NCBI GenBank assembly: GCA_913041415.1
Contig: CAJWHS010000003.1
Coordinates: 603-64,602, forward strand
Reading direction: 5' to 3'
Source of the DNA: an uncultured Acidimicrobiaceae bacterium
Lineage (GTDB): Bacteria; Actinomycetota; Acidimicrobiia; Acidimicrobiales; Aldehydirespiratoraceae
Length of the DNA: 64,000 bases
The position numbers were made by a program, and so were the translations under genes. Shown here in pieces: positions 8,747-63,203 of the stretch. Position 1 is the stretch's first letter. Each line of letters starts with the position of its first letter. Below the pieces are notes generated by a model, which saw only the letters and a program-made list of their open reading frames with translations, had not been told where the DNA came from and ran no database searches.

Positions 8747-10108
8747 TCACTGGTCGACGATGGCGCGGCTCTCCCGAGCGACCGCGGCAAAGATCCCCTT
8801 GCTCATGAGGCTGAACTCCTCGTTGCGCCGCTGCTGGTAGATCTCGGCACGAGCGCCGTGCGCGGTGGTTGACTCCGGGTCAGCCTGAACGGCAAGCTCC
8901 ACCACCTGACAGGCGAGACGAAGGTCGCCGGCGGCGGCGAGCTCTGTCGCTCGCGACGTGAGGACGTCGGCCCCGCCTGCCAACGCCGCCATCTCAGCGG
9001 CGAACACAGTTTCGGGGGCCGGTTTAAGGTGGGCCGGATTCTTGTCCCACCAGCCGCCGTAAAGCCGCCACAGATTGCGGACGACGAACTCGGGCTCGTC
9101 GTACACCGGCTGCATCCACGGCTTCACGAGCAGGTCGTCCGGCACGGTGACCTGGTGGATGATGGCGTCGAGCGACTCGCCCGCGTTCATCATTGCAAGT
9201 GTCTCCTCGGTGAGGAGCTCGAGCGCAGCGGCGAGATCGCAGAGCACGGTCGAAACCCGATCAGCGCCGCGAACGACGAGGCCGTGCGCCGGAAGCAGCC
9301 ACTCGGCCTCATAGGTCATCATCTCCCGCAGCGCCTGGGCCCACTCCAACGGATAGCGCTGAACCTTCTGCGGGTTGCCGCAGTTGGGAAACACCCAGGT
9401 GACGAGGTCACCGACACACAACGCCTTGTCGTGGGGCACCCAGGTCCAGAGGTGATCGTCGGTCTCACCCTTCGCATGGCGCGTCTCGAACTCACGACCG
9501 CCGACGCTGAGCGTGTGGCTCGACCCCACCTCGAGATCGGGCCACAGCACGTCGTCAGGCAAAAACTGCGGCACATCGCCAAGCGCCATGTCCTTCACCC
9601 CGCCGACACCGCCGAACTGCCGCATGTTGATGTCGGTGTTGTAGCCGTTCGTGAGTTCGTAGCGACGGAAACGGTCGGCGACGCAGTGATGCCCGACAAC
9701 CCGGATTGGCTCATGGCCACGATCAGCGGCATCGGCCGCCATCGCTCCGCTGCCGCCGACATGGTCGACGTGGCCGTGCGTGTAGATCAGCGTGTGGATG
9801 GGATCATCGGTCCAGCCTCGCACTGCCTCCATCGTGCGGCCTGCCGTGATCTGGCCGGAGGAGTCGAAACACACCAGGCCCTCGTCGGTGCGGAACGAGA
9901 CGATGTTGCTGAACGACTCGACGATCGAAAGATCGTCGTCGAGCACGCTCAGGGTCTGGGTCACGCGGTTGACCTGCTCGTCGTGGACGCCAGCGTCGAT
10001 CACGCGGCTCGACAGCTCGACGGGATCCTCGGTGACGATGGGGAGCTTCTTCTGGAGCTTGCCGATCATGCGGCGACGGTAGCCGTCGTCGGTCGGATCG
10101 AGAATCAC
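8747..10108 (-). CDS. MBL-fold metallo-hydrolase, alkyl-sulfatase-like
   Basis: 453 aa with the metal motif THGHVDHVGG and a helical C-terminal region resembling the alkyl-sulfatase dimerisation domain. No SCP2-like tail is present. Confidence 0.75.
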   Translation of the reverse strand: MILDPTDDGYRRRMIGKLQKKLPIVTEDPVELSSRVIDAGVHDEQVNRVTQTLSVLDDDLSIVESFSNIVSFRTDEGLVCFDSSGQITAGRTMEAVRGWTDDPIHTLIYTHGHVDHVGGSGAMAADAADRGHEPIRVVGHHCVADRFRRYELTNGYNTDINMRQFGGVGGVKDMALGDVPQFLPDDVLWPDLEVGSSHTLSVGGREFETRHAKGETDDHLWTWVPHDKALCVGDLVTWVFPNCGNPQKVQRYPLEWAQALREMMTYEAEWLLPAHGLVVRGADRVSTVLCDLAAALELLTEETLAMMNAGESLDAIIHQVTVPDDLLVKPWMQPVYDEPEFVVRNLWRLYGGWWDKNPAHLKPAPETVFAAEMAALAGGADVLTSRATELAAAGDLRLACQVVELAVQADPESTTAHGARAEIYQQRRNEEFSLMSKGIFAAVARESRAIVDQ

Positions 10109-10653
10109 CGCCGAACGAAAAGCTCCAGACTCCGCTCGCCGTCGGCCCGCGGCTCGCCTGCCCAGACGCGGTCGATGCCCTCAAGTTCGACGACGGCCTC
10201 GGGGCCGACCCAATCGAACAGCACCACGAGGTGCTGATCGTCGACGTAAAGACCTGAGCGGCTCGCCCGGTCGAGCGATCGGACGAAGGGCAACATCGCC
10301 CGGAGCCGCATACCCGGATCACCAAACGATACGAGGCGGCTGCCAAGATCGAGTTTGCGTCCACTCGGGGCGTAGGCGACCCGCTGCCACGACGGCTTGT
10401 CACCGCGACGGCGCAGGCCAGCCTCGCGGATCCGGCGGACGAGTTCTCGACTGTCGACCGCCTCCGCACCGAGTGCGATCGCGCGGTGCCGATCGATTTC
10501 TTCGACGTCGTAGTGGTCGCCCTGAAAGCCGAGCCGGCGCTTGCCAATACATTGCGCGAACTCGTGGAGCTCGTCGAACGACTCGTCGCTCACGAGGTGG
10601 GCCCAACGCGCGTCCTGCCACTCCCACACGGCTGCATCGACAAGCATGGTCAT
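10105..10653 (-). CDS. DUF4031 domain protein
   Basis: ORF 10105..10674; the likely start is ATG ending at 10653 (MTMLVDAAVWEWQDARWAHLVSD..ELHEFA..IG..R..FQGDHYD). Its stop overlaps the start of the upstream MBL gene by 4 nt. Confidence 0.7.
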   Translation of the reverse strand: MTMLVDAAVWEWQDARWAHLVSDESFDELHEFAQCIGKRRLGFQGDHYDVEEIDRHRAIALGAEAVDSRELVRRIREAGLRRRGDKPSWQRVAYAPSGRKLDLGSRLVSFGDPGMRLRAMLPFVRSLDRASRSGLYVDDQHLVVLFDWVGPEAVVELEGIDRVWAGEPRADGERSLELFVRR

Positions 10654-10709
10654 GGCCGTACGGTATCGGCGCATGCTCCGACGGGCGTCTTCGTGCGAGA
10701 CTGCCCACC

Positions 10710-11093
10710 GTGTCCGACCCGACCGACGAGGTCCTCCTCCGCATCCCCGCCCGCCCGGAATACGGGCGCATCTTGCGGGTCGGTGGCGCTGCGCTTGGGA
10801 TGCGGCGAGGACTCTCGTTCGCAGAAATTGACGAATTGCGGCTCGCCGTCGACGAAGCGGTGATCCTGCTGCTCGATGGCTCCGGTGCAGACGGCGATAC
10901 CGAACTCATCGCGACCTTCCGGTTCGACGACAGCCACCTCGAGGTCGAGATCGCCACCGGCCGAACCGAAGCATTGCGCAGTAACGCGGTCGCCCGGTTC
11001 GGCGAGGTGTGTTCGCCGCTGATCGACGCCTACGAAGTCAACCCCGACCGAGGCTGGTTGCGGCTTCGGAAGGCGCCGGCACAGGTCGACTGA
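10710..11093 (+). CDS. hypothetical protein, anti-sigma-factor (RsbW/SpoIIAB HATPase)-like
   Basis: Taken from ORF 10473..11093 with a proposed GTG start at 10710 (VSDPTDEVLLRIPARPEYGRILRV...EIDELRLAVDEAV). The resemblance to anti-sigma regulatory factors is weak and comes from memory only. Confidence 0.4.
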   Translation: MSDPTDEVLLRIPARPEYGRILRVGGAALGMRRGLSFAEIDELRLAVDEAVILLLDGSGADGDTELIATFRFDDSHLEVEIATGRTEALRSNAVARFGEVCSPLIDAYEVNPDRGWLRLRKAPAQVD

Positions 11094-54416: not shown

Positions 54417-56573
54417 TCAGTCGCCGTCGGCCGTTGTGGTCGGTGGGGTCGTCGTCGTTGTTGTCGTAGTCGTTGTCGTAGTCGTCGTCTCCGGGGCGGC
54501 CTGACCGACGGTGATGGTGACGAACAGGCCGACCTCGACCTCTTCATTCCGTTCCGGATCCTGCGCCATCACACGACCAACGTTCGGCGAACCGGCAGGC
54601 ACCTGCTCAAAGATGACAGCCACATCTAGCAATTCATCACGCAGGAGCTCGATCGCGGTCTCAGCGAAAAGATCCGTCACCGCCGGCACCTCCACCGTCG
54701 GCAGGCCCGTCGACACCACGATCGAGACCTGGGAACCAAGAGCGGCGAGCTGATCAGCGGCAGGTTCCGTACGGATGACCTTGCCCTCTTCGATCTCCTC
54801 ACTCGCCTCTTCGACCTGAGAAGGATTGACAATAAAGCCCGCTTCTCGCAGCGCGTTCACCGCTGCGATCACGTCAAGGCCTTCAACATCGGGCACCGGC
54901 GTAACTTCAGGACCCGTAGAAACCGTGATCTCCACCGTACTGCCAGGGGCAAGCACCGAACCCGGCGACGGGCTCTGACTGATAATCGTGCCAGCGTCCT
55001 GGGGACTCGTCGCGGTGACCTCGGTAACGACGTACTGGAACTCCTGCAACGTCGCAACCGCCTCCTCACGAAGACTGCCGATCACGCTCGGAACCGTGTC
55101 CGCCGTGCCAGAACTGACCCGGAGCGTCACCACCGAGTTGGGCTCAACCCGCTCACCCGAGGGCGGAACCTGAGCAAACACCTGGTTCACCGGCACCTCA
55201 TCATTGGTCTCAAACTCAACATCAGGCTGAGCCAACCCAGCCTCAAGCAAAAGCTCACGAGCTTCTTGCACATCAAGGCCCTCAACGCTGGGCACGTCGA
55301 CAACGTCGGCAACAACATCGACTGGCGTGTTCTCGTCGTCGCCCCCAAGAGCATCGAGGAACGAGGCGAACAGGTAGCCGAGGATCACGATGAGCACACC
55401 GAGCGAGGCGACCAGCGCAACGGTGCGCCAGATCCCACCGCCGCGAGGGGGTTCTTCGTAGTAGTAACCGGCAGCGCCATAGGCCGCCTGTTGCTGGGTG
55501 ATGGCCGCTTGCTGGGCCGGGTCAGCGTAGCCAGGGATCGGCTGCTGGGGTACCCCAGTGCCTGGTGTCGGCGTGACCGGCTGTGCGGTGGTTGCATCGA
55601 CCGCTGAGATCGGCGCCGTGGCCGGTGGCTCGGTGACTGGCGTTTGGGCCGGAGAATCGGGAGGGGCCTCAGCGGCGCCCGCAACAGCGCCAGCGGCACT
55701 GCCTACGGCAGCCGCACCCTTGCCAGAGATGCGGTGGGCACCAGCAAGATAGCGCCGAAGGTCGTTTCGGAGGTCGTCGGCAGTGGGATACCGGTTGGCC
55801 GGACTCTTGGCCAACAACTTAATCGTGATCGCCTGGAGCGATTCGGCGACCTGGACCCCGCGTTCGATGAGGCCGTCGGGACGCTCCTGCACGTGCTTGT
55901 AGGCGACAGCGACCGGGGTCTCGGCCTGGAAAGGCGGCACGCCGGCGAGCATCTCGTAGAGCACAACGCCCAGCGAGTAGAGGTCGGAACGGCCGTCGAG
56001 CGCCTTGCCCTGGGCTTGCTCCGGCGAGAAGTAGGTGGCGGTCCCCATGACCGATCCGTGCTGGGTGAGGGCCGCATCACCGCCGCTCACGAGGGCGGTG
56101 GCGATGCCGAAGTCGGCGACCTTCACGTCGCCGCTGTCAGAAACGAGGATGTTGCCGAGCTTGATATCGCGGTGCACGAGGCCTGCGGCATGGGCGGTGC
56201 TGAGCGCAGCGGCGACATCGGAAGCGATCTCAGCGGCGCGGTCGGGATGCAGTGGTCCGGTGGAGCGCAGGACATCGGACATCGACCGGCCCGACACGTA
56301 CTCCATCACGATGTAGTAGGTGCCCCGCTCTTGCCCCCAGTCATAGATGCCGACAATGTTGGGATGGTTGAGGTTTGCGGCAGCCTGAGCCTCACGACGG
56401 AAGCGCTCGACAAAGTTCGGATCGTTTGCGAACTCGGGGAACAGCACCTTGAGCGCGACCTCGCGACCGAGCAGCCCGTCACGTGCGAGGTAAACGTCGG
56501 CCATGCCACCGCGGGCGATATGGCGCAACAGTTCGTAACGGCCGTTGAAGACGGTAGGGCCCTGCTCGGACAT
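54417..56573 (-). CDS. pknB: Ser/Thr protein kinase PknB with four extracellular PASTA domains and poly-Thr tail
   Basis: 718 aa with a Hanks kinase domain (GGMADVY, HRDIKLGNIL, DFGIA, GTATYFSPEQ), a Pro/Ala-rich linker, one transmembrane helix, four PASTA repeats and the tail APETTTTTTTTTTTTTTPPTTTADGD. Confidence 0.95.
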   Translation of the reverse strand: MSEQGPTVFNGRYELLRHIARGGMADVYLARDGLLGREVALKVLFPEFANDPNFVERFRREAQAAANLNHPNIVGIYDWGQERGTYYIVMEYVSGRSMSDVLRSTGPLHPDRAAEIASDVAAALSTAHAAGLVHRDIKLGNILVSDSGDVKVADFGIATALVSGGDAALTQHGSVMGTATYFSPEQAQGKALDGRSDLYSLGVVLYEMLAGVPPFQAETPVAVAYKHVQERPDGLIERGVQVAESLQAITIKLLAKSPANRYPTADDLRNDLRRYLAGAHRISGKGAAAVGSAAGAVAGAAEAPPDSPAQTPVTEPPATAPISAVDATTAQPVTPTPGTGVPQQPIPGYADPAQQAAITQQQAAYGAAGYYYEEPPRGGGIWRTVALVASLGVLIVILGYLFASFLDALGGDDENTPVDVVADVVDVPSVEGLDVQEARELLLEAGLAQPDVEFETNDEVPVNQVFAQVPPSGERVEPNSVVTLRVSSGTADTVPSVIGSLREEAVATLQEFQYVVTEVTATSPQDAGTIISQSPSPGSVLAPGSTVEITVSTGPEVTPVPDVEGLDVIAAVNALREAGFIVNPSQVEEASEEIEEGKVIRTEPAADQLAALGSQVSIVVSTGLPTVEVPAVTDLFAETAIELLRDELLDVAVIFEQVPAGSPNVGRVMAQDPERNEEVEVGLFVTITVGQAAPETTTTTTTTTTTTTTPPTTTADGD
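54481..55349. repeat. direct repeat copy A (pknB ectodomain coding region)
   Basis: Aligns base-for-base with 56811..57670 at an offset of 2330 nt, apart from one 9-nt indel near 55300. It includes an identical block at 55015-55267. Confidence 0.9.
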
Positions 56574-56722
56574 AGCTCAGCAGCTTACCGTTGCATGACG
56601 AACGCACAGATGCACGGTCCTGATCGGAACGACATCACGAGGCTGTTAGTTGTCCGCAACTCCGACGGGGCCCCGAAGATCGACCACGGTTTCTTCACTC
56701 GCCCCTTCGCTGGTCTCGACGA

Positions 56723-57811
56723 TTACGGCGACGTCGTCGGGTAGCTCGTGGTGGGAGGGGTCGTTGGGGTCGTCGGGTAGGTCGTGGTGGGAGGGGTCGT
56801 TGTTGTCGTCGTCGTCGTCTCCGGGGCGGCTTGACCGACGGTGATGGTGACAACCAGACCGACCTCGACCTCTTCGAACGGTGCCGGATCCTGCGCCATC
56901 ACACGACCATCACTCGGCGAACCAGCAGGCACCTGCTCAAAGATGACAGCCACATCAAGCAACTCATCGCGCAGGACCTGGATCGCAGTTTCAGCGAAGA
57001 GATCCGTCACCGCCGGCACCGTCACCGTCGGCAGACCCGTCGACACCACAATCGAGACCTGCGAACCAACCGCGGCCAGCTGATCCGCAGCAGGCTCCGT
57101 ACGGATCACCTTGCCCTCTTCAATCTCCTCACTCGCCTCTTCGACCTGAGAAGGATTGACAAGAAAGCCCGCCTCTCGCAACGCGTTCACCGCTGCGATC
57201 ACATCAAGACCTTCAACATCAGGCACCGGCATCACTTCCGGACCCGAAGAAACCGTGATCTCCACCGTGCTGCCAGGGGCAAGCACCGAACCCGGCGACG
57301 GACTCTGACTGATAATCGTCCCCGCGTCCTGGGGACTCGCCGCCGTGACCTCGGTAACGACGTACTGGAACTCCTGCAACGTCGCAACCGCCTCCTCACG
57401 AAGACTGCCGATCACGCTCGGAACCGTGTCCGCCGTGCCAGAACTGACCCGGAGCGTCACCACCGAGTTGGGCTCAACCCGCTCACCCGAGGGCGGAACC
57501 TGAGCAAACACCTGGTTCACCGGCACCTCATCATTGGTCTCAAACTCAACATCAGGCTGAGCCAACCCAGCCTCAAGCAAAAGCTCACGAGCTTCTTCCA
57601 CATCAAGGCCCTCAACGCTGGGCACGTCGACAACAACATCGACTGGCGTGTTCTCGTCGTCGCCCCCAAGCGAAAAGAGGAGCCAGGCAAACAAGAACCC
57701 AAGGACAAAACCAAGCACGCCGAACAGCGCCGCAGTCCGCCAAAAACCGTCGGCAAAACGCGGTTCGAGCTCGTCGCGGGCATCGACGACAGCAGGCCCC
57801 TGATCAGACAT
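56723..57811 (-). CDS. membrane-anchored four-PASTA protein without kinase domain (truncated pknB duplicate)
   Basis: 362 aa made of MSDQGP... plus about 25 cytoplasmic residues, one transmembrane helix (FWRTAALFGVLGFVLGFLFAWLLF), four PASTA repeats nearly identical to those of PknB, and a Thr/Pro-rich tail. Confidence 0.85.
   Translation of the reverse strand: MSDQGPAVVDARDELEPRFADGFWRTAALFGVLGFVLGFLFAWLLFSLGGDDENTPVDVVVDVPSVEGLDVEEARELLLEAGLAQPDVEFETNDEVPVNQVFAQVPPSGERVEPNSVVTLRVSSGTADTVPSVIGSLREEAVATLQEFQYVVTEVTAASPQDAGTIISQSPSPGSVLAPGSTVEITVSSGPEVMPVPDVEGLDVIAAVNALREAGFLVNPSQVEEASEEIEEGKVIRTEPAADQLAAVGSQVSIVVSTGLPTVTVPAVTDLFAETAIQVLRDELLDVAVIFEQVPAGSPSDGRVMAQDPAPFEEVEVGLVVTITVGQAAPETTTTTTTTPPTTTYPTTPTTPPTTSYPTTSP
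56811..57670. repeat. direct repeat copy B (PASTA-only gene)
   Basis: Partner of 54481..55349; the identical block is at 57345-57597. Weaker similarity continues through the transmembrane helix, the first codons and about 80 nt of the 5' leader. Confidence 0.9.
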
Positions 57812-57883
57812 GGATACGAACCCTACCGCTGCATTGCGACCTCATCGATGCACGCTCCAAATCGGAGCGACGGCAACACGGCA

Positions 57884-59437
57884 TCAATTGAACGCTGCTT
57901 CGATGACGGCTTGGGCGATTGGGGCTGCCACACGACCACCGGTCTGCTCGCTCGCGCCTTCCTGCGCCTCGACGATCACAGCGAACGCAAGGGATGGTTG
58001 CTCATTGGGCATACCGGCATAGCCGACGATCCAGGCGTGACTGTTGGGTGGAGTGGTTCCGAGCTGGGCGGTGCCCGTCTTGCCGCCGACGACAACTCCT
58101 TCGGTGAGCAAGTTTCGGGCTGTGCCTTCCTCGGCGACGACGCGCATGGCGTCGCGTAGGATTGCGGCGGTCGATGCTGACATCGCAACACGCAGTGGTT
58201 CGGGCTCGACGCGGTCAAGGAGCGAACCGTCGAACGCCAAGAGTTCGGTGACGACGTGAGGGGTCATCACCACGCCATCGTTGGCGATCGCCGCAGCAAC
58301 GAGCGCCATCTGCAGTGGGGTTGCGGCAACGTCGTTTTGGCCGATCGAGGTCTGGGCAAGCCGGGCCGAGTTCTCGTGAACCGGCACTGCACCGTTGGGC
58401 AGTACCGTCTCGGCCCCTTCGGCCGGTTGCTGATCGGGCGCCCGGTAGCGATCGACATCGGCGAGTTGTTCGCCGTAGTCGGTTGGAAACCGAGACTCGG
58501 CGGCGCCCGGAAGGTCGATGCCGAGGTCGGCGTTGAAACCGAACGCCTCCGCAGCGGTGACCATCTGCTCCGGACCGACCCACTCGGCGCCGATTTCGGA
58601 GAACGCCGTATTGCACGACACGCGCAAAAGTTCGACGAGGTCACCGCCGCAGGCCGACCCGGCAAAGTTGCGGATCGGTGCACCGGCCGGGACCGGCTCG
58701 TACGTCGTCGCCACCGGGAAGACGGGCGTGCTCGCGCCGATCAGACCCGTCTCGACGCCAGCTGCGGCAGTGACAAGCTTGAAGGTCGAGCCGGGGAAGT
58801 AGATCTCCCGGTAACTCTTAGCGAGTAGCTGCGTATTCGGGTCGGCGACCAGGGCGTCGAAGGCGGCATTCGCGACCGTGCCGTCAGGATCGGCGAGCGG
58901 GTTCGGGTCGAAGCTGGGGAAGGTCCACAGTGCGATGATCTCGCCGGTTCGCGGGTCGAGTGCGACGACCGAGCCCTTGCGGTCGCCGAGTGCCTCCGCC
59001 GCAACCCGCTGGACATCGTCGCGGATCGACAGCGTGAGCGTGGCGGTGGAGTTGCGATCGGCGAAGAGATCACCGAGCGACGCAAAGCGCTGGTCGATCG
59101 GATCGCCGGCGAGTTCGTCGTTGTAGCTGCGTTCGAGTCCAACGGCCTCGACGTTGAGCGACTGATAGCCCGTGATGTGCGCGTAGAGCTCACCCTCGGG
59201 GTACTCCCGGCGGAAGTCGACCGACCCGTCGTACTCGACCGATTGGGCGACAAGCACACCATCGGCGGTGATGATTGGGCCGCGCTCTCGACCGAACTCA
59301 CGGATCAAGCCCCGCGTGTTGTTGACGTCGTCCTGCAGGCGTTCAGCACCGAAGAACTGGACCCGGTTGAGCTGCAGGAACAGCACCAGATACAGCACGC
59401 TGAGCACGACGCCGAGACGCCGGATCCGGAGGTTCAC
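57884..59437 (-). CDS. pbpA: penicillin-binding protein 2 family D,D-transpeptidase
   Basis: 517 aa with an N-terminal membrane anchor, a PBP dimerisation domain, and the transpeptidase motifs STFK, S.N and KTGT. The GTG start overlaps the rodA stop. Confidence 0.92.
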   Translation of the reverse strand: MNLRIRRLGVVLSVLYLVLFLQLNRVQFFGAERLQDDVNNTRGLIREFGRERGPIITADGVLVAQSVEYDGSVDFRREYPEGELYAHITGYQSLNVEAVGLERSYNDELAGDPIDQRFASLGDLFADRNSTATLTLSIRDDVQRVAAEALGDRKGSVVALDPRTGEIIALWTFPSFDPNPLADPDGTVANAAFDALVADPNTQLLAKSYREIYFPGSTFKLVTAAAGVETGLIGASTPVFPVATTYEPVPAGAPIRNFAGSACGGDLVELLRVSCNTAFSEIGAEWVGPEQMVTAAEAFGFNADLGIDLPGAAESRFPTDYGEQLADVDRYRAPDQQPAEGAETVLPNGAVPVHENSARLAQTSIGQNDVAATPLQMALVAAAIANDGVVMTPHVVTELLAFDGSLLDRVEPEPLRVAMSASTAAILRDAMRVVAEEGTARNLLTEGVVVGGKTGTAQLGTTPPNSHAWIVGYAGMPNEQPSLAFAVIVEAQEGASEQTGGRVAAPIAQAVIEAAFN

Positions 59438-60747
59438 GCGGTGCCCTTCGCCGGACGGATCGAGACCCGCTGCTCGTGGGACATGCGGACGAGCAGTGCA
59501 AGCAGGACATAGTTGGCGACGAGCGACGAACCGCCGTAGCTGACGAAGGGCAAGGTGATGCCGGTGAGTGGTACGATCCGCAATACCCCGCCGACGATCA
59601 CGAAGGTCTGCACGGCTAGGAGGGTGGTGAGGCCGAGCGCAAAGAGCTTCTCAAAGACTCGATCGGCCCGCAACGAAACCCGAAGGCCTGAGCCGATGAG
59701 GAGCAAGAACGCCATTAACACCGCCGCGGAGCCGGCGAGACCGAGTTCCTCCCCGATCGCGGCGAAGATGAAATCGGTTTCCGCAAACGGAATCCGGCCT
59801 GGTTCACCTTGACCGAGACCGGTGCCGGTGAGCCCGCCGTCGGCGAGCGCAAACGAACCCTCGACAATCTGGAAGCCATCGCCCTTCGGATCCGCAAACG
59901 GATCGAGCCAGATATCGACGCGCTTCTGCACGTGGTCGAACATCGTCCATGCTGCGAAGGCACCGGCGAAGAAGAGGACTGCGCCGACGGCAAGCACCAC
60001 CCACCGTTCGGAGGCGACCCACAGCACGACGACGAAGAGGGTGAAGAAGAGTAGCGACGAGCCGAGATCGCGCTGAAAGACCATCACGCCGAGCGAACCG
60101 GCCCACGCGATACCAATCGGCGCGAGATCACGAAGTTCGAGGCGGCTGCGCAGCAGTTCCCGCGAGTCGACCAGGTAGCCGGCGAAGAACGCCGCAAGGG
60201 TGAGTTTGGCGAACTCGCCGGGCTGAAAGTTGATCGGGCCGACGCTTGCCCAGATCCGAGCACCGTTGATCTCGGTGCCGAGCCCTGGAACGAGAGGAAT
60301 CATCAACAAGAGGAGCCCGCCAACCCCGAGGAGATAACGGTACTGCTCGATGACCCGAACTCGCGGCAAGAAAAGCAGCGTGGCGATGTAACCGCCAATC
60401 CCGATCGCCGTCCAGGTCGATTGGAGCGCAGCCAGGCTGCCGTCGAGGCGAGTAATGACGACATAGCCGAGCCCGTTGAGCAAGAGCGAGATCGGAAGGA
60501 AAACGGGGTCGGCTGCCGACGCAAAGTGACGGTTAGCCAGGTGGGCGACCGCACCGAGACCGAACATCCAGAGCAGGAAGGGCCCCAGGTTCGCGGGGAT
60601 CGCATCGTTGGTGCCGAAACTGGCGAGCCCGTAGGCGACGGCGACGGCGACCCCCACCATCACCAGCAGGCCCGTCTCGACACGCCGCGGCTTCATTGCA
60701 AGCAGCGGAGAGACCAGATGCGTCGGTGGCGACTCGGTGGCCGTCAT
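59434..60747 (-). CDS. rodA: FtsW/RodA/SpoVE-family peptidoglycan glycosyltransferase
   Basis: ORF 59434..60966; the likely start is ATG ending at 60747 (MTATESPP), 13 nt after the pstP stop. It is polytopic, with motifs QPGEFAK and the SEDS-family-typical TD.IFAAIGEELG. Confidence 0.9.
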   Translation of the reverse strand: MTATESPPTHLVSPLLAMKPRRVETGLLVMVGVAVAVAYGLASFGTNDAIPANLGPFLLWMFGLGAVAHLANRHFASAADPVFLPISLLLNGLGYVVITRLDGSLAALQSTWTAIGIGGYIATLLFLPRVRVIEQYRYLLGVGGLLLLMIPLVPGLGTEINGARIWASVGPINFQPGEFAKLTLAAFFAGYLVDSRELLRSRLELRDLAPIGIAWAGSLGVMVFQRDLGSSLLFFTLFVVVLWVASERWVVLAVGAVLFFAGAFAAWTMFDHVQKRVDIWLDPFADPKGDGFQIVEGSFALADGGLTGTGLGQGEPGRIPFAETDFIFAAIGEELGLAGSAAVLMAFLLLIGSGLRVSLRADRVFEKLFALGLTTLLAVQTFVIVGGVLRIVPLTGITLPFVSYGGSSLVANYVLLALLVRMSHEQRVSIRPAKGTA

Positions 60748-60760
60748 GATCGGCGGTGGA

Positions 60761-61933
60761 TCACGACCCCGAGGAGTCGCTCGAGTTCCGGAGGTTCTCG
60801 AGGTACAACTCGGCGGTTTCGAGCGCGTCGAAACGCTGGCCGTCGCGGACTGCAGTGACCGCTGTCGGGGGGAGTTCGTCGACATCGATGTCGGACTCGA
60901 CCTCGAGGGTCTGGTCGAAGAAGAGGAAGCCGCCGTCGCGTCCCTTGAGGATGACAACAGTGCCATTGTCGCCCTCGGAAACGGTGTAACCCGAACGCCC
61001 GATCGCTGAAACTGCGACGAGCATGCCGATCATGACGAAGAGCACCGCAGCGGTGACGAGGCCGACACGCCGCGTCACGGTCGGCGGCACAAACCCGCTT
61101 GGAGTCTCGTCGCGGCAAGGCCCGGAAGTGATCGGGCCGGCATCGCCGAGCACCTCGCCGGACAACGCCTTGTGGATGCCGGCAACGCGATCAGCGGGAC
61201 GCTCCACACCGGGGTCGGCCTCGACGACATCGACCACGACAACGGTGATATTGTCGCGGCCGCCAGCCTCACGGGCTCGGCGCACGAGTTCGTCGGCAGC
61301 ATCCTGTGGCGACAACGCGGACTGCAGAACCTCGTGGATCTCGCCATCGTCGATTTCACCGAAGAGTCCGTCGCTGCAGAGAACGTAGCGGTCGCCCACG
61401 ACAGGAATCAGCTCCCAGGCGTCGACAAGGACCTTGTCGTCGATACCGAGCGCCCGCGTCACGATGTTGCGCTGCGGGTGCACGGCGGCTTCGGCTCGGG
61501 TGAGACGACCGTCGCGGACGAGCGCTTCGACCAGGCTGTGGTCCTCGGTGTGCTGATGCAGACCGGAGTCGGTCATCCGGTAGAGCCGGCTGTCGCCGAC
61601 ATTGGCCACCCCGAGTCGATGGGATCCCGCCCGTTCGATGTCGGCGAGCATCACCACGGTGGTTCCCATGCCCCTGAACTCGGGCTGCTCACGGGCACGT
61701 TCGAGAATGTCGGCGTTGGCTTCCTGAACGCCTCGGACGAGATCGTTGATCGAGTTGATCGGGCCGATGTCGGCGAGGCGGTCGACGGCGACCTGTGAGG
61801 CAATCTCACCGCCGTTGTGGCCGCCCATGCCGTCGGCAACGACGAACACGGTGCCGGCGACAACAAACGTGTCCTCGTTGTGGGCTCGGACCTGGCCGAC
61901 ATCGGTGGCCGCACCGGATACGAAGGCGGTCAC
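60761..61933 (-). CDS. pstP: PP2C-family Ser/Thr phosphatase with membrane anchor (PstP/Stp)
   Basis: 390 aa with PP2C motifs (R..NED, VADGMGGH, LCSDGL), then one transmembrane helix and a small extracytoplasmic domain. The GTG start overlaps the fhaB stop. Confidence 0.92.
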   Translation of the reverse strand: MTAFVSGAATDVGQVRAHNEDTFVVAGTVFVVADGMGGHNGGEIASQVAVDRLADIGPINSINDLVRGVQEANADILERAREQPEFRGMGTTVVMLADIERAGSHRLGVANVGDSRLYRMTDSGLHQHTEDHSLVEALVRDGRLTRAEAAVHPQRNIVTRALGIDDKVLVDAWELIPVVGDRYVLCSDGLFGEIDDGEIHEVLQSALSPQDAADELVRRAREAGGRDNITVVVVDVVEADPGVERPADRVAGIHKALSGEVLGDAGPITSGPCRDETPSGFVPPTVTRRVGLVTAAVLFVMIGMLVAVSAIGRSGYTVSEGDNGTVVILKGRDGGFLFFDQTLEVESDIDVDELPPTAVTAVRDGQRFDALETAELYLENLRNSSDSSGS

Positions 61934-62427
61934 GCCAACTCCATCACATGTTCGCCGACCTGGATACGGTCACCGGGGCCGACGTTCTCGGGATGGTCGA
62001 GGACGTGGTCGTTCACCAGCGTGCCGTTGGTGGAGCGGAGATCCTCGACCATCCAACGGCCATCGTGTTGGAAGATGCGGGCGTGGACTTTGGAGACACG
62101 AGCGTCGTCGATCACGACCGCGCAGTTGGATGCCCGCCCGATGGTGGTCTCAGCCTGGAGTTCGAACACCTGGCCGGCCACGGTGGGAGGGGTGATCACG
62201 ACGAGTCGGGAACCAGCCTCGCCGTCGTCGTCGACGGGCGCAGCAGGCGGCGGCGCACCGGCGTGGGTCGACGCGCCGTTGGTGGCGGGCACGGCAGCCG
62301 GTCCCGGCACAACGACCGGATTCTCCGTACGCAGTTCGACCCAGACCGCCCGCAGCACCCGAAAGAAGGTGAGGTAGACGATCGCCAAGAGCCCAAGGCG
62401 CAAGAGGAAGAGGAATTGATCCGTCAA
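61930..62427 (-). CDS. fhaB: FHA-domain protein with N-terminal membrane helix (FhaB/FipA-like)
   Basis: 165 aa with an N-terminal hydrophobic helix and a C-terminal FHA domain (TIGRAS.C.VVIDD..VS..HARI......W.V.DL.STNGT.VN). Confidence 0.85.
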   Translation of the reverse strand: MTDQFLFLLRLGLLAIVYLTFFRVLRAVWVELRTENPVVVPGPAAVPATNGASTHAGAPPPAAPVDDDGEAGSRLVVITPPTVAGQVFELQAETTIGRASNCAVVIDDARVSKVHARIFQHDGRWMVEDLRSTNGTLVNDHVLDHPENVGPGDRIQVGEHVMELA

Positions 62428-62471: not shown

Positions 62472-63122
62472 CTAACCTGCGCGGAACTCGAACGAGGTCG
62501 TCGCGCCCAGCGAGACGATGTCGCCGTCGTCGAGGCGACGAGAGGTGATAGCGACGCCATTGACGGTGGTGCCGTTGGTGGAACCGAGATCCGTGAGCAC
62601 GAAACCATCGCCGTCCGGGCAGATCTCGGCATGTTCGCGGCTGACATTGGTGTCGTCGAACGTGATCGTGCACTCGGGAAGCCGACCAAAGGTGAGGCGG
62701 TACTCCCCGAGCACGACCTGCTGCCCGTTAGAGAGGTGCAACACGCCGGTGGCGCCATCGGCCTCCTTCATGCGGGCGTCGACGCGCAACTGGCCAGGTC
62801 GAACATTGGCGCCCTCGGTCAAGATGACCTGCACAGGGCCCATGAAGTTCCAACCGTCATCGCGTGCGGCCTCACGAGCGGCCTCGCAGAGTTCACGGAC
62901 GAGCGACTCCTCGACATCGGCGAAGTGGGCCAGGTCGGTCTCGTTGAGTTGGACCTCAAAGTGGTTGGGAACAACGGACTGCCCTTTCACACCGACAGAG
63001 CGGGAATCGGCCATCTCGCGCACGAGACGGTGCCCAATTTCCACTGGTCGAACGCCGCCGCGGAAGAAACGCCCGACGGCGCCGTCGACCAACCGTTCGA
63101 GTCGTCGTTCGACTGATCGCAT
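62472..63122 (-). CDS. fhaA: FHA-domain protein with DUF3662 (FhaA N-terminal) domain
   Basis: ORF 62472..63203; the likely start is ATG ending at 63122 (MRSVERRLERLVDG). The N-terminal FhaA_N-like domain joins directly to a C-terminal FHA domain (FGRLPECTITFDD.NVSR.HAEI......VL.DLGSTNGT.VN). Confidence 0.85.
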   Translation of the reverse strand: MRSVERRLERLVDGAVGRFFRGGVRPVEIGHRLVREMADSRSVGVKGQSVVPNHFEVQLNETDLAHFADVEESLVRELCEAAREAARDDGWNFMGPVQVILTEGANVRPGQLRVDARMKEADGATGVLHLSNGQQVVLGEYRLTFGRLPECTITFDDTNVSREHAEICPDGDGFVLTDLGSTNGTTVNGVAITSRRLDDGDIVSLGATTSFEFRAG

Positions 63123-63203
63123 GCCCACGACGGTGAGGATACCCCTGACGCAATCTGCGTGGGTTGCGGTACGCTCCTCCGAGCACTTTCCGGAGTGCGC
63201 CAC

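Follow-up and report, generated by a model that had tools for sequence, protein, structure and literature searches.

How PASTA domains control the PknB/Stk1-type kinases that carry them, such as Mycobacterium tuberculosis PknB, Staphylococcus aureus Stk1, and Bacillus subtilis PrkC, is debated, with ligand-induced activation, localisation, or both under discussion, and it has been studied mainly with artificial truncations, whose overexpression is toxic. PASTA repeats also occur, one or two in cis, in class B penicillin-binding proteins (PBPs) of Firmicutes (PBP2x, PBP2B, and SpoVD). Two truncations have been studied in mycobacteria. RFP fused to the transmembrane (TM) helix and ectodomain of M. 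tuberculosis PknB, without kinase or linker, localised to mid-cell (Mir et al. 2011, PMC3145798), while overexpression of membrane-attached PknB PASTA domains (a construct termed TMP) delayed regrowth, elongated the cells (Turapov et al. 2015, PMC4632501), delocalised the vancomycin staining of nascent wall, and raised beta-lactam sensitivity (PMC4632501). Here we describe a chromosomal gene of the same architecture, located between pbpA and full-length pknB in a 64,000-nt stretch of DNA (the window) from an uncultured Acidimicrobiaceae bacterium. We refer to this kinase-less gene as copy A (56723–57811, minus strand) and to pknB as copy B (54417–56573, minus strand). A kinase-less tandem paralogue of this kind, under selection and maintained by gene conversion, appears undescribed, whereas its domain and pathway are already familiar.

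Architecture and origin of copy A

The locus is an actinobacterial cell-wall signalling operon read from the minus strand, on which all window features given with coordinates below lie. Copy A, a PASTA-only paralogue of pknB, opens with ATG, encodes 362 amino acids, and ends at TAA, as judged from the listing of open reading frames (ORFs), Pfam, and BLASTP. Its product begins with a predicted cytoplasmic stub (residues 1–25, 57737–57811), delimited by aligning copy A orthologues with the pknB N-terminus and TM helix, and continues with a TM helix placed by hydropathy (residues 26–48, TAALFGVLGFVLGFLFAWLLFSL, 57668–57736). Four PASTA domains follow: PASTA 1 (residues 63–126, 57434–57625), for which the best Pfam stretch is 61–124 and the limits come from VPxVxG..SSG motifs; PASTA 2 (residues 130–190, 57242–57424), placed by Pfam and motifs and aligning to the M. 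tuberculosis PknB PASTA in 2KUI; PASTA 3 (residues 196–259, 57035–57226), placed by Pfam, motifs, and a PDB sequence match; and PASTA 4 (residues 265–327, 56831–57019), placed by BLASTP, codon comparison, and motifs. A Thr/Pro-rich C-terminal tail, recognised by composition, occupies 56726–56830. A first-pass annotation of this DNA had already read the ORF as encoding 362 residues that form a stub, a single TM helix, a set of four PASTA domains, and a Thr/Pro tail but no kinase, and the ORF listing, Pfam, and hydropathy agree with it. Its further claim, that TM helix and ectodomain are collinear with PknB from about residue 375 to the end, is borne out by BLASTP, which matches residues 16–351 to PknB 374–709 at 87% identity (E=1e-171). 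At the DNA level copy A and pknB are 91% identical across 954 nt, and most of their amino-acid differences in the window fall in PASTA 4.

Domain searches separate the two proteins clearly. Pfam finds PF03793 (PASTA) alone in copy A, in four stretches (E=1.4e-47, 159.9 bits against a cutoff of 23.2), with no match to the kinase family PF00069 or the transpeptidase family PF00905; no Hanks domain is present, and all that is left of the kinase-coding part is its first 15 codons. In contrast, pknB (718 amino acids; Hanks kinase, linker, TM helix, and four PASTA domains by Pfam and NCBIfam NF033483) contains Pkinase and four PASTA domains and is accepted by the Stk1/PknB profile NF033483 with 581 bits (cutoff 450), whereas copy A scores 168 bits over profile positions 337–532 only and is rejected. 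Because copy A falls outside the kinase profile and lacks a transpeptidase, its domain content places it in the PASTA domain family but among neither the PASTA kinases nor the PASTA PBPs. The closest solved structures to its PASTA array are the PknB and Stk1 ectodomains 2KUI, 3PY9, and 3M9G, and these PDB matches and Pfam are enough to establish its fold.

The TM helix is the single hydrophobic segment of the protein, with a Kyte-Doolittle 19-residue maximum of 2.46 at residue 28 and no comparable second peak. Three Arg residues flank it on the N-terminal side and none on the C-terminal side, so that by the positive-inside rule an N-in/C-out orientation like that of PknB is expected, with the PASTA domains on the C-terminal, outer side of residues 26–48 in this sequence-predicted topology. 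The helix is copy-specific in sequence, carries a 3-amino-acid deletion, and contains a GxxxG motif (G34–G38) not found in PknB. The stub is acidic, with residues 1–15 derived from the first 15 pknB codons and residues 16–25 from the juxtamembrane EPPRGGGIWR. At the other end, the 35-residue tail comprises 19 Thr and 9 Pro and holds a 36-nt tandem repeat (56733–56804, 92% identical). Its length is hypervariable among strains, from ~25 to ~85 residues (proteins P0124–P0132), and it ends either in YPTTSP or in ..LPQESGPTTVL.

Copy A almost certainly originated by tandem duplication followed by an in-frame internal deletion, as read from the sequence at both junctions. In the ancestor of a narrow marine Acidimicrobiaceae clade, a ~2.3-kb segment was duplicated in tandem; it began ~100 nt short of the pbpA stop, took in the 72-nt leader, and ended with the pknB stop codon. 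Codons 16–372, encoding kinase and linker, were afterwards lost in frame from the upstream copy. The 3′ end of pbpA and the leader are repeated between the copies, with the junction at the pknB stop codon. Leader A (72 nt, 57812–57883) lies between pbpA and copy A, and leader B (72 nt, 56574–56645), its duplicate, precedes pknB. The two leaders and the first 15 codons of both genes are homologous, with ~68–77% identity, as are the N-termini, MSDQGPAVVDARDEL in copy A and MSEQGPTVFNGRYEL in pknB; a resemblance of N-terminus and leader had been noticed in the first pass. Downstream of the copy A stop lies an 80-nt decayed copy (56646–56725) of the last ~100 nt of pbpA (57884–57985, the upstream end of the duplicated unit), ~73% identical to it by repeat and sequence comparison, and then leader B. 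The copy A stop sits precisely where the last pknB codon meets pbpA-derived ..TGATCGTCGAG (..GATCGTCGAG), and the first bases of the remnant supply the stop codon, TAA in the window and TGA in the scaffold L057. Single-copy pknB of the close relatives L040 and L031 ends in ..YP(T)SP-stop, as copy A does. Together, the position of the stop codon, the pbpA remnant, and the shared YP(T)SP ending place the limits of the duplicated unit inside the 3′ end of pbpA and at the pknB stop. The C-terminus of pknB in the window is itself derived (54417–54450, ..TTTADGD-stop). In every duplicate-bearing genome the pknB C-terminus has changed to ..TTTAD(G/S)D, leaving the ancestral ..YP(T)(T)SP ending on the kinase-less copy only.

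At the deletion junction, ..RYEL is joined directly to EPPRGGGIWRT.., and PknB residues 16–372, whose codons in pknB span 55458–56528 by alignment, are gone. The orthologues L042 and L011 (MSEQGP..RYELEPRFAGGLWRT) lie nearer to the inferred deletion junction than the copy A of the window. The proposal that a whole pknB gene had been duplicated in tandem and then lost kinase and juxtamembrane linker in frame is thus supported down to both junctions.

The 5′ part of copy A is more diverged than that of pknB: leader, first 15 codons, and TM region differ by 27–33% from pknB and from single-copy relatives, whereas pknB differs from the single-copy relatives by only 12–19% across the same regions, and the TM region of copy A has changed by only 3–7% since the clade crown. 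This may reflect a stem-lineage burst that outpaced the pbpA synonymous rate and extended to silent and non-coding sites, a duplicate of greater age that the L040 and L031 lineages have since lost, or a block imported from an unsampled lineage. Import from another sampled pknB lineage was rejected, as the block is no closer to any of them. Divergence of the pbpA remnant (~27%) fits an origin close to the L040 split or a little earlier, an estimate with a large error given its ~100 nt.

Both leaders carry a common motif, TGCATC, ~21 nt, TANNNT (more exactly TA(A/G/C)NNT), exactly 8 nt, and ATG, which we found in 17/17 leaders aligned: in the window at 56574–56645 (TGCATC .. TAAGCT-N8-ATG) and 57812–57883 (TGCATC, with TAGGGT as the -10-like hexamer 8 nt before the ATG), and in the same place in L004–L009, L031, L037, L038, and L040. 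The motif, conserved across the family, is probably a -10 element and would mark an internal promoter for a leaderless or near-leaderless mRNA; the duplication of the gene copied it as well. A scan for E. coli-type promoters and terminators found no promoter, and terminators at chance level only. A leader hairpin (GCTCC..GGAGC) considered as an RNA element was dropped when it proved not to be conserved beyond close relatives.

Concerted evolution and selection

Over its ectodomain, copy A has not been left to diverge freely. The window copies share a 253-nt tract of exact identity (57345–57597, equal to 55015–55267; sequence comparison), apparently a recent gene-conversion tract, beyond which they diverge gradually to 86–90% identity in PASTA 3–4; dS between them is 0 over codons 53–130. 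The exact tract measures 317 nt in L066 (2.1-Mb contig), 326 nt in L067 (0.73-Mb contig), and 768 nt in L057, a short-read scaffold, and over the PASTA region the two copies are apart by 6.2% in the window, 1.8% in L066, 1.8% in L067, and 0% in L057, the L057 values possibly being inflated by consensus calling. When the window is set against L066, orthologues are 3.5% apart for copy A and 7.5% apart for pknB. The exact tract always starts directly after the last copy-specific deletion, and its boundaries differ between genomes. Since paralogues within genomes are closer than orthologues between genomes, these sequences identify gene conversion, running in either direction, as what keeps the copy A ectodomain near-identical to that of PknB.

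Across family-level relatives (L004–L009, L034–L038), PknB retains ~90% identity in the kinase, 55–59% in the PASTA ectodomain, and ~50% in the linker. Judged by these alignments, the sensor face of PknB evolves much faster than its catalytic face. With the ectodomain changing this fast, conversion keeps copy A matched to a moving target, so that both proteins present the same PASTA surface.

We restricted the selection test to the copy-specific codons 1–49, where copy A differs from pknB by dS ~1, dN ~0.27, and two 9-nt deletions; this segment is too diverged from pknB to be repaired by gene conversion and is therefore usable for the purpose. Among 11 orthologues, a minimal count of events gives at least 20 synonymous against 9 non-synonymous changes, where neutrality predicts a non-synonymous fraction of 0.747 (binomial P~1e-6), and pairwise dN/dS among orthologues is 0.14–0.23. 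Seven of the nine non-synonymous changes fall in the stub (codons 1–23), while the helix (codons 25–49) has accumulated ~10 synonymous changes against 2 conservative replacements. The TM helix is near-invariant in the 11 DNA orthologues (the exceptions being A28V and F35L in L042/L011) and unchanged in 10 cluster members. The reading frame is uninterrupted in 10/10 listed copies, of which 7 reach the stop and 3 are cut by contig ends. In the long-contig copies L066 and L067 the frame is likewise open, with the Thr-repeat tail in a different and unreliable frame, a difference probably due to indel errors. We conclude that copy A is very probably a functional gene, which purifying selection on the copy-specific stub and TM helix maintains. 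Selection on codons 1–49 in turn implies, as far as sequence can tell, that the protein is made and that its membrane anchor matters; presumably it is expressed from the same operon as the kinase.

The first-pass annotation had allowed for a decaying duplicate, which the intact ORFs of all good-quality orthologues and the 20 against 9 changes contradict. A related alternative is that copy A is a functionless young duplicate, a by-product kept open chiefly by conversion from pknB and eventually to be lost. Its narrow distribution would fit, as sister lineages (L040/L033, L031/L032) have a single pknB; the apparent constraint on the ectodomain could be explained by conversion; and the stub evolves faster than the PknB N-terminus (dN 0.077 vs 0.018). 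However, the stub and near-invariant TM helix, at dS ~1, lie beyond repair by conversion and yet show the excess of synonymous changes, the start codon is kept in all orthologues and the -10-like hexamer in the four A-copy leaders examined, and no premature stop occurs in good-quality assemblies across pbpA dS values up to 0.27. We therefore regard the functionless alternative as improbable and the retention of copy A by selection as the better account.

Distribution and assembly of the tandem arrangement

Among public genomes, a metagenome-assembled genome (MAG) of a marine Acidimicrobiaceae is the closest. As the 362-amino-acid protein of the window has no exact database match, P0001, which represents its cluster and is 97% identical to it, took its place; the cluster has 51 members. 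Beyond the window, the tandem order pbpA–copy A–junction–pknB is found in contigs L028, L029, L030, L057, L066, and L067. L028 is 98–99% identical to the window; L029 and L030 (~92–93% identical) start in the 3′ end of copy A and continue across the junction to the end of a complete pknB; both genes are intact in L057, a 23.8-kb Tara scaffold; and L066 (2.10-Mb contig) and L067 (730-kb contig) carry '_pilon' names that suggest long-read assemblies. The recurrence of the duplicate in independent contigs, two of them long, answers the concern raised with the original observation that it might be an assembly artefact.

That concern deserves weighing, since an expanded or chimeric repeat could in principle create two PASTA genes from a single real one. 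Several short-read contigs and MAGs show a kinase-less join, and contigs L010, L011, and L042 break inside PASTA 1 just past the copy A N-terminus. In L001, L027, and L041, and in proteins P0125, P0128, P0129, and P0134, the copy A N-terminus runs on through PASTA into the pknB tail and then pabA, the kinase being absent. When these joins are compared with a two-copy genome, the switch from A-like to B-like sequence falls exactly over the tract that is identical between copy A and pknB, and L001 (NZNH01000029.1, MAG EAC9; 10001–11062) and L041 have Ns inside the repeat. The switch point, the Ns, and the long contigs together make repeat collapse in short-read assemblies the more likely origin of the kinase-less contigs, although they may represent true recombinational loss of the kinase. 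The collapse signature thus belongs to those assemblies and not to the window, where, moreover, the private leader, N-terminus, TM helix, and tail of copy A stand 27–33% off pknB, which misassembly of one gene cannot produce, and the junction holds a 27%-diverged pbpA remnant. With the same tandem order in several other contigs, two of 0.73 and 2.1 Mb, an artefact is extremely improbable, and for the window we consider this explanation refuted. The same repeat has a practical consequence: being near-identical, it makes short-read assemblers drop the kinase and leaves MAGs with a PASTA protein and no PknB, so that gene inventories taken from such collapsed MAGs (e.g. NZNH01000029.1) would wrongly score PknB as absent.

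Relatives without the duplicate lack any gene at this position. In 15/15 distinct relatives whose contigs span both genes, pbpA is followed directly by pknB. The nearest, L033/L040, have a PbpA of 96% amino-acid identity and a pbpA dS of 0.33; L031/L032 lie at a pbpA dS of 0.54, and the eleven others, which show the same order, are more distant. No pknA was found in these 15 relatives. Copy A had been described as lying where pknA normally sits, and as a statement of position this stands; as all 15 relatives have pbpA directly before pknB, however, nothing has replaced pknA, and the shared place is a coincidence of position only. In Streptomyces, too, a PBP gene directly adjoins pknB (PMC6273383).

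Around copy A, the operon includes pbpA (57884–59437), which encodes a class B PBP without PASTA domains by ORF listing and Pfam, rodA/ftsW (59434–60966), a PP2C phosphatase gene (60761–61933), and two FHA genes (62472–63203 and 61930–62427); pknB is followed by a convergent gene for a pabA/trpG-like glutamine amidotransferase. As called mechanically, the rodA ORF (510 amino acids) overlaps the PP2C ORF by ~200 nt, while RodA has 437 amino acids in the gene calls of relatives. The true rodA start is probably downstream, the long N-terminal extension being spurious.

Possible function and comparison with known systems

The function of copy A can be approached through the two mycobacterial TM-PASTA experiments, whose constructs have the same architecture. 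In our model, copy A would insert N-in/C-out, and its PASTA domains would recognise the ligand of PknB, a peptidoglycan precursor or muropeptide, which would bring it to the same wall-synthesis sites. Lacking a kinase and a phosphorylatable linker (no FHA-docking autophosphorylation sites), it would be unable to signal. It could thus act as a stoichiometric competitor or co-receptor that dilutes PknB at ligand sites or pairs with the PknB ectodomain, setting the threshold or location of PknB activation and tuning the local density of the kinase, and it may also act on the RodA-PbpA synthase encoded just upstream. The likeliest reading, though in our estimation somewhat short of probable, is that copy A, as a PASTA ectodomain anchored in the membrane, shares ligand and location with PknB and modulates either the signalling of PknB or the synthesis of peptidoglycan, by analogy with these constructs. 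The narrower proposal sees in copy A a decoy or co-receptor that nature has provided to a bacterial receptor kinase of the Hanks type, with a conversion-matched ectodomain and a TM helix first rewritten and then frozen, and is put forward more tentatively still.

Several observations weigh against a modulatory role. The concerted evolution of the ectodomains may be a by-product of tandem repeats and not selected. The low dN/dS of the PASTA region is silent on copy A itself, as conversion imports the constrained sequence of pknB; copy A/pknB dN/dS over the PASTA domains (0.1–0.2), considered as evidence of constraint, was dropped as uninformative for this reason. The clade is shallow (pbpA dS up to 0.27), and its nearest relatives manage without copy A. 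The TM helix is strongly diverged from that of PknB (dN ~0.27, 3-amino-acid deletion), which speaks against simple TM heterodimerisation. Finally, TMP is toxic when overexpressed, the toxicity is relieved by Mg2+ and not by muropeptides, and the mechanism is unsettled (PMC4632501); its authors suggest that the construct may compete with native PknB for ligand, bind PBPs, or interfere directly with peptidoglycan (PMC4632501).

The rewritten helix, with a GxxxG motif new relative to PknB, points to a changed intramembrane partnership and leaves room for a role with RodA-PbpA instead. Two further accounts of copy A can be given. The first is that copy A works with RodA-PbpA as a PASTA module in trans, positioning or stabilising the synthase independently of PknB signalling. 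Its place directly after pbpA in the same operon, the absence of PASTA domains from actinobacterial class B PBPs (PMC6273383), and a TM helix rewritten and then strictly conserved, as would suit a new intramembrane partner, are in keeping with this, and PASTA binding to PBPs is among the models for the TMP phenotype (PMC4632501). On the other hand, the position of copy A follows directly from the duplication mechanism and is not functional evidence, and pbpA shows no detectable co-evolution, with 96–97% amino-acid identity to duplicate-free relatives; a dedicated synthase accessory is accordingly unlikely in our estimation. The second account sets copy A apart from signalling altogether, as an extra ectodomain with a hypervariable tail directed against phages or grazers that recognise the PknB ectodomain. 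The far faster evolution of the ectodomain than of the kinase across the family (55–59% vs ~90% identity) and the strain-to-strain variation in tail length and sequence are what such a surface decoy would lead one to expect, yet the idea is pure inference, a membrane-bound identical copy adds receptors instead of removing them, and no phage-related genes are adjacent. We consider it very unlikely and return to the modulatory reading in comparing copy A with described proteins.

Copy A is a direct descendant of the resident pknB and shares with the PknB/Stk1 kinases a predicted topology, four PASTA domains 87–100% identical to those of the co-resident PknB, and an operon. It differs from them in lacking kinase domain and linker and in its private TM helix, and neither phosphorylation activity nor FHA docking is possible for it. 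Like the PASTA PBPs of Firmicutes, copy A has PASTA domains outside the membrane that are linked to a class B transpeptidase, in its case by adjacency to pbpA; unlike them, it is a separate, kinase-derived polypeptide with four repeats and no transpeptidase.

Within the literature library searched, no paper turned up that describes a kinase-less paralogue of PknB in nature or any other kinase-less PASTA membrane protein. The suggestion that copy A is not a described component of the pathway therefore holds within that library, but its architecture is not unique in the databases. Other proteins with a TM helix, 4–5 PASTA domains, and no catalytic domain are annotated only as 'PASTA domain-containing protein'; those we recovered (P0009, P0010, P0107, P0105, and P0033) have N-termini and origins unlike those of copy A, and none is a tandem pknB duplicate. 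P0105 and P0033 are stand-alone kinase-less PASTA proteins. P0009 and P0010 have 4–5 PASTA domains, are 54–60% identical to the ectodomain of the window, and share the N-terminus M(V/D)DLETQLxRYADQ. In L058 (5553–7344) and L060 (5553–7107; GCA_039195265.1 and GCA_039193795.1, respectively), a 151-amino-acid ECF sigma gene overlaps the start of the PASTA TM gene by 8 nt. P0009 and P0010 look like PASTA-sensor anti-sigma partners of the ECF sigma factor, a pairing of which our literature search found no description. Copy A is not part of such a pair, as its upstream gene is pbpA and its N-terminus comes from pknB. At L064 (3989–5879; GCA_963756965.1, 1.12-Mb contig), a 312-amino-acid kinase (Pkinase only) and a 292-amino-acid PASTA array, P0107, are encoded 74 nt apart, with the order FHA-PP2C-RodA-PbpA upstream and ddl after; P0107 may be part of a split or frameshifted pknB. 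A further use of PASTA outside kinases and PBPs is P0025 (568 amino acids), which combines a trypsin-like protease domain (PF13365/PF00089) with PASTA. If the decoy or co-receptor reading is true, copy A and the other kinase-less PASTA proteins, the ECF-linked ones included, would make PASTA a portable wall-sensing module with several outputs beyond kinases and PBPs.

Kinase-less receptors co-expressed with a full receptor are described for eukaryotic truncated Trk and insect insulin decoy receptors (PMC5591008, PMC7253209). Like copy A, these consist of an ectodomain and TM helix without a kinase, but they are unrelated proteins that arose by splicing or ancient paralogy, and the parallel is one of analogy only.

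The closest counterparts remain the engineered proteins ED-PknB-RFP (PMC3145798) and TMP (PMC4632501), which have the same architecture as copy A, a TM helix and four PASTA domains without kinase or linker. Those are plasmid-borne laboratory truncations, whereas copy A is chromosomal, fixed in its clade, equipped with its own TM helix, under selection as judged from its codons, and present one-to-one with pknB. Evolution has thus made and fixed the same truncation and kept it under selection across strains up to ~0.27 synonymous substitutions per site apart. Although limited to a narrow, uncultured clade, this offers a clean natural experiment on how PASTA receptors work: a tolerated TM-PASTA/PknB pair with identical or near-identical ectodomains and TM helices that differ in defined ways, usable to probe the effects of a kinase-less receptor.

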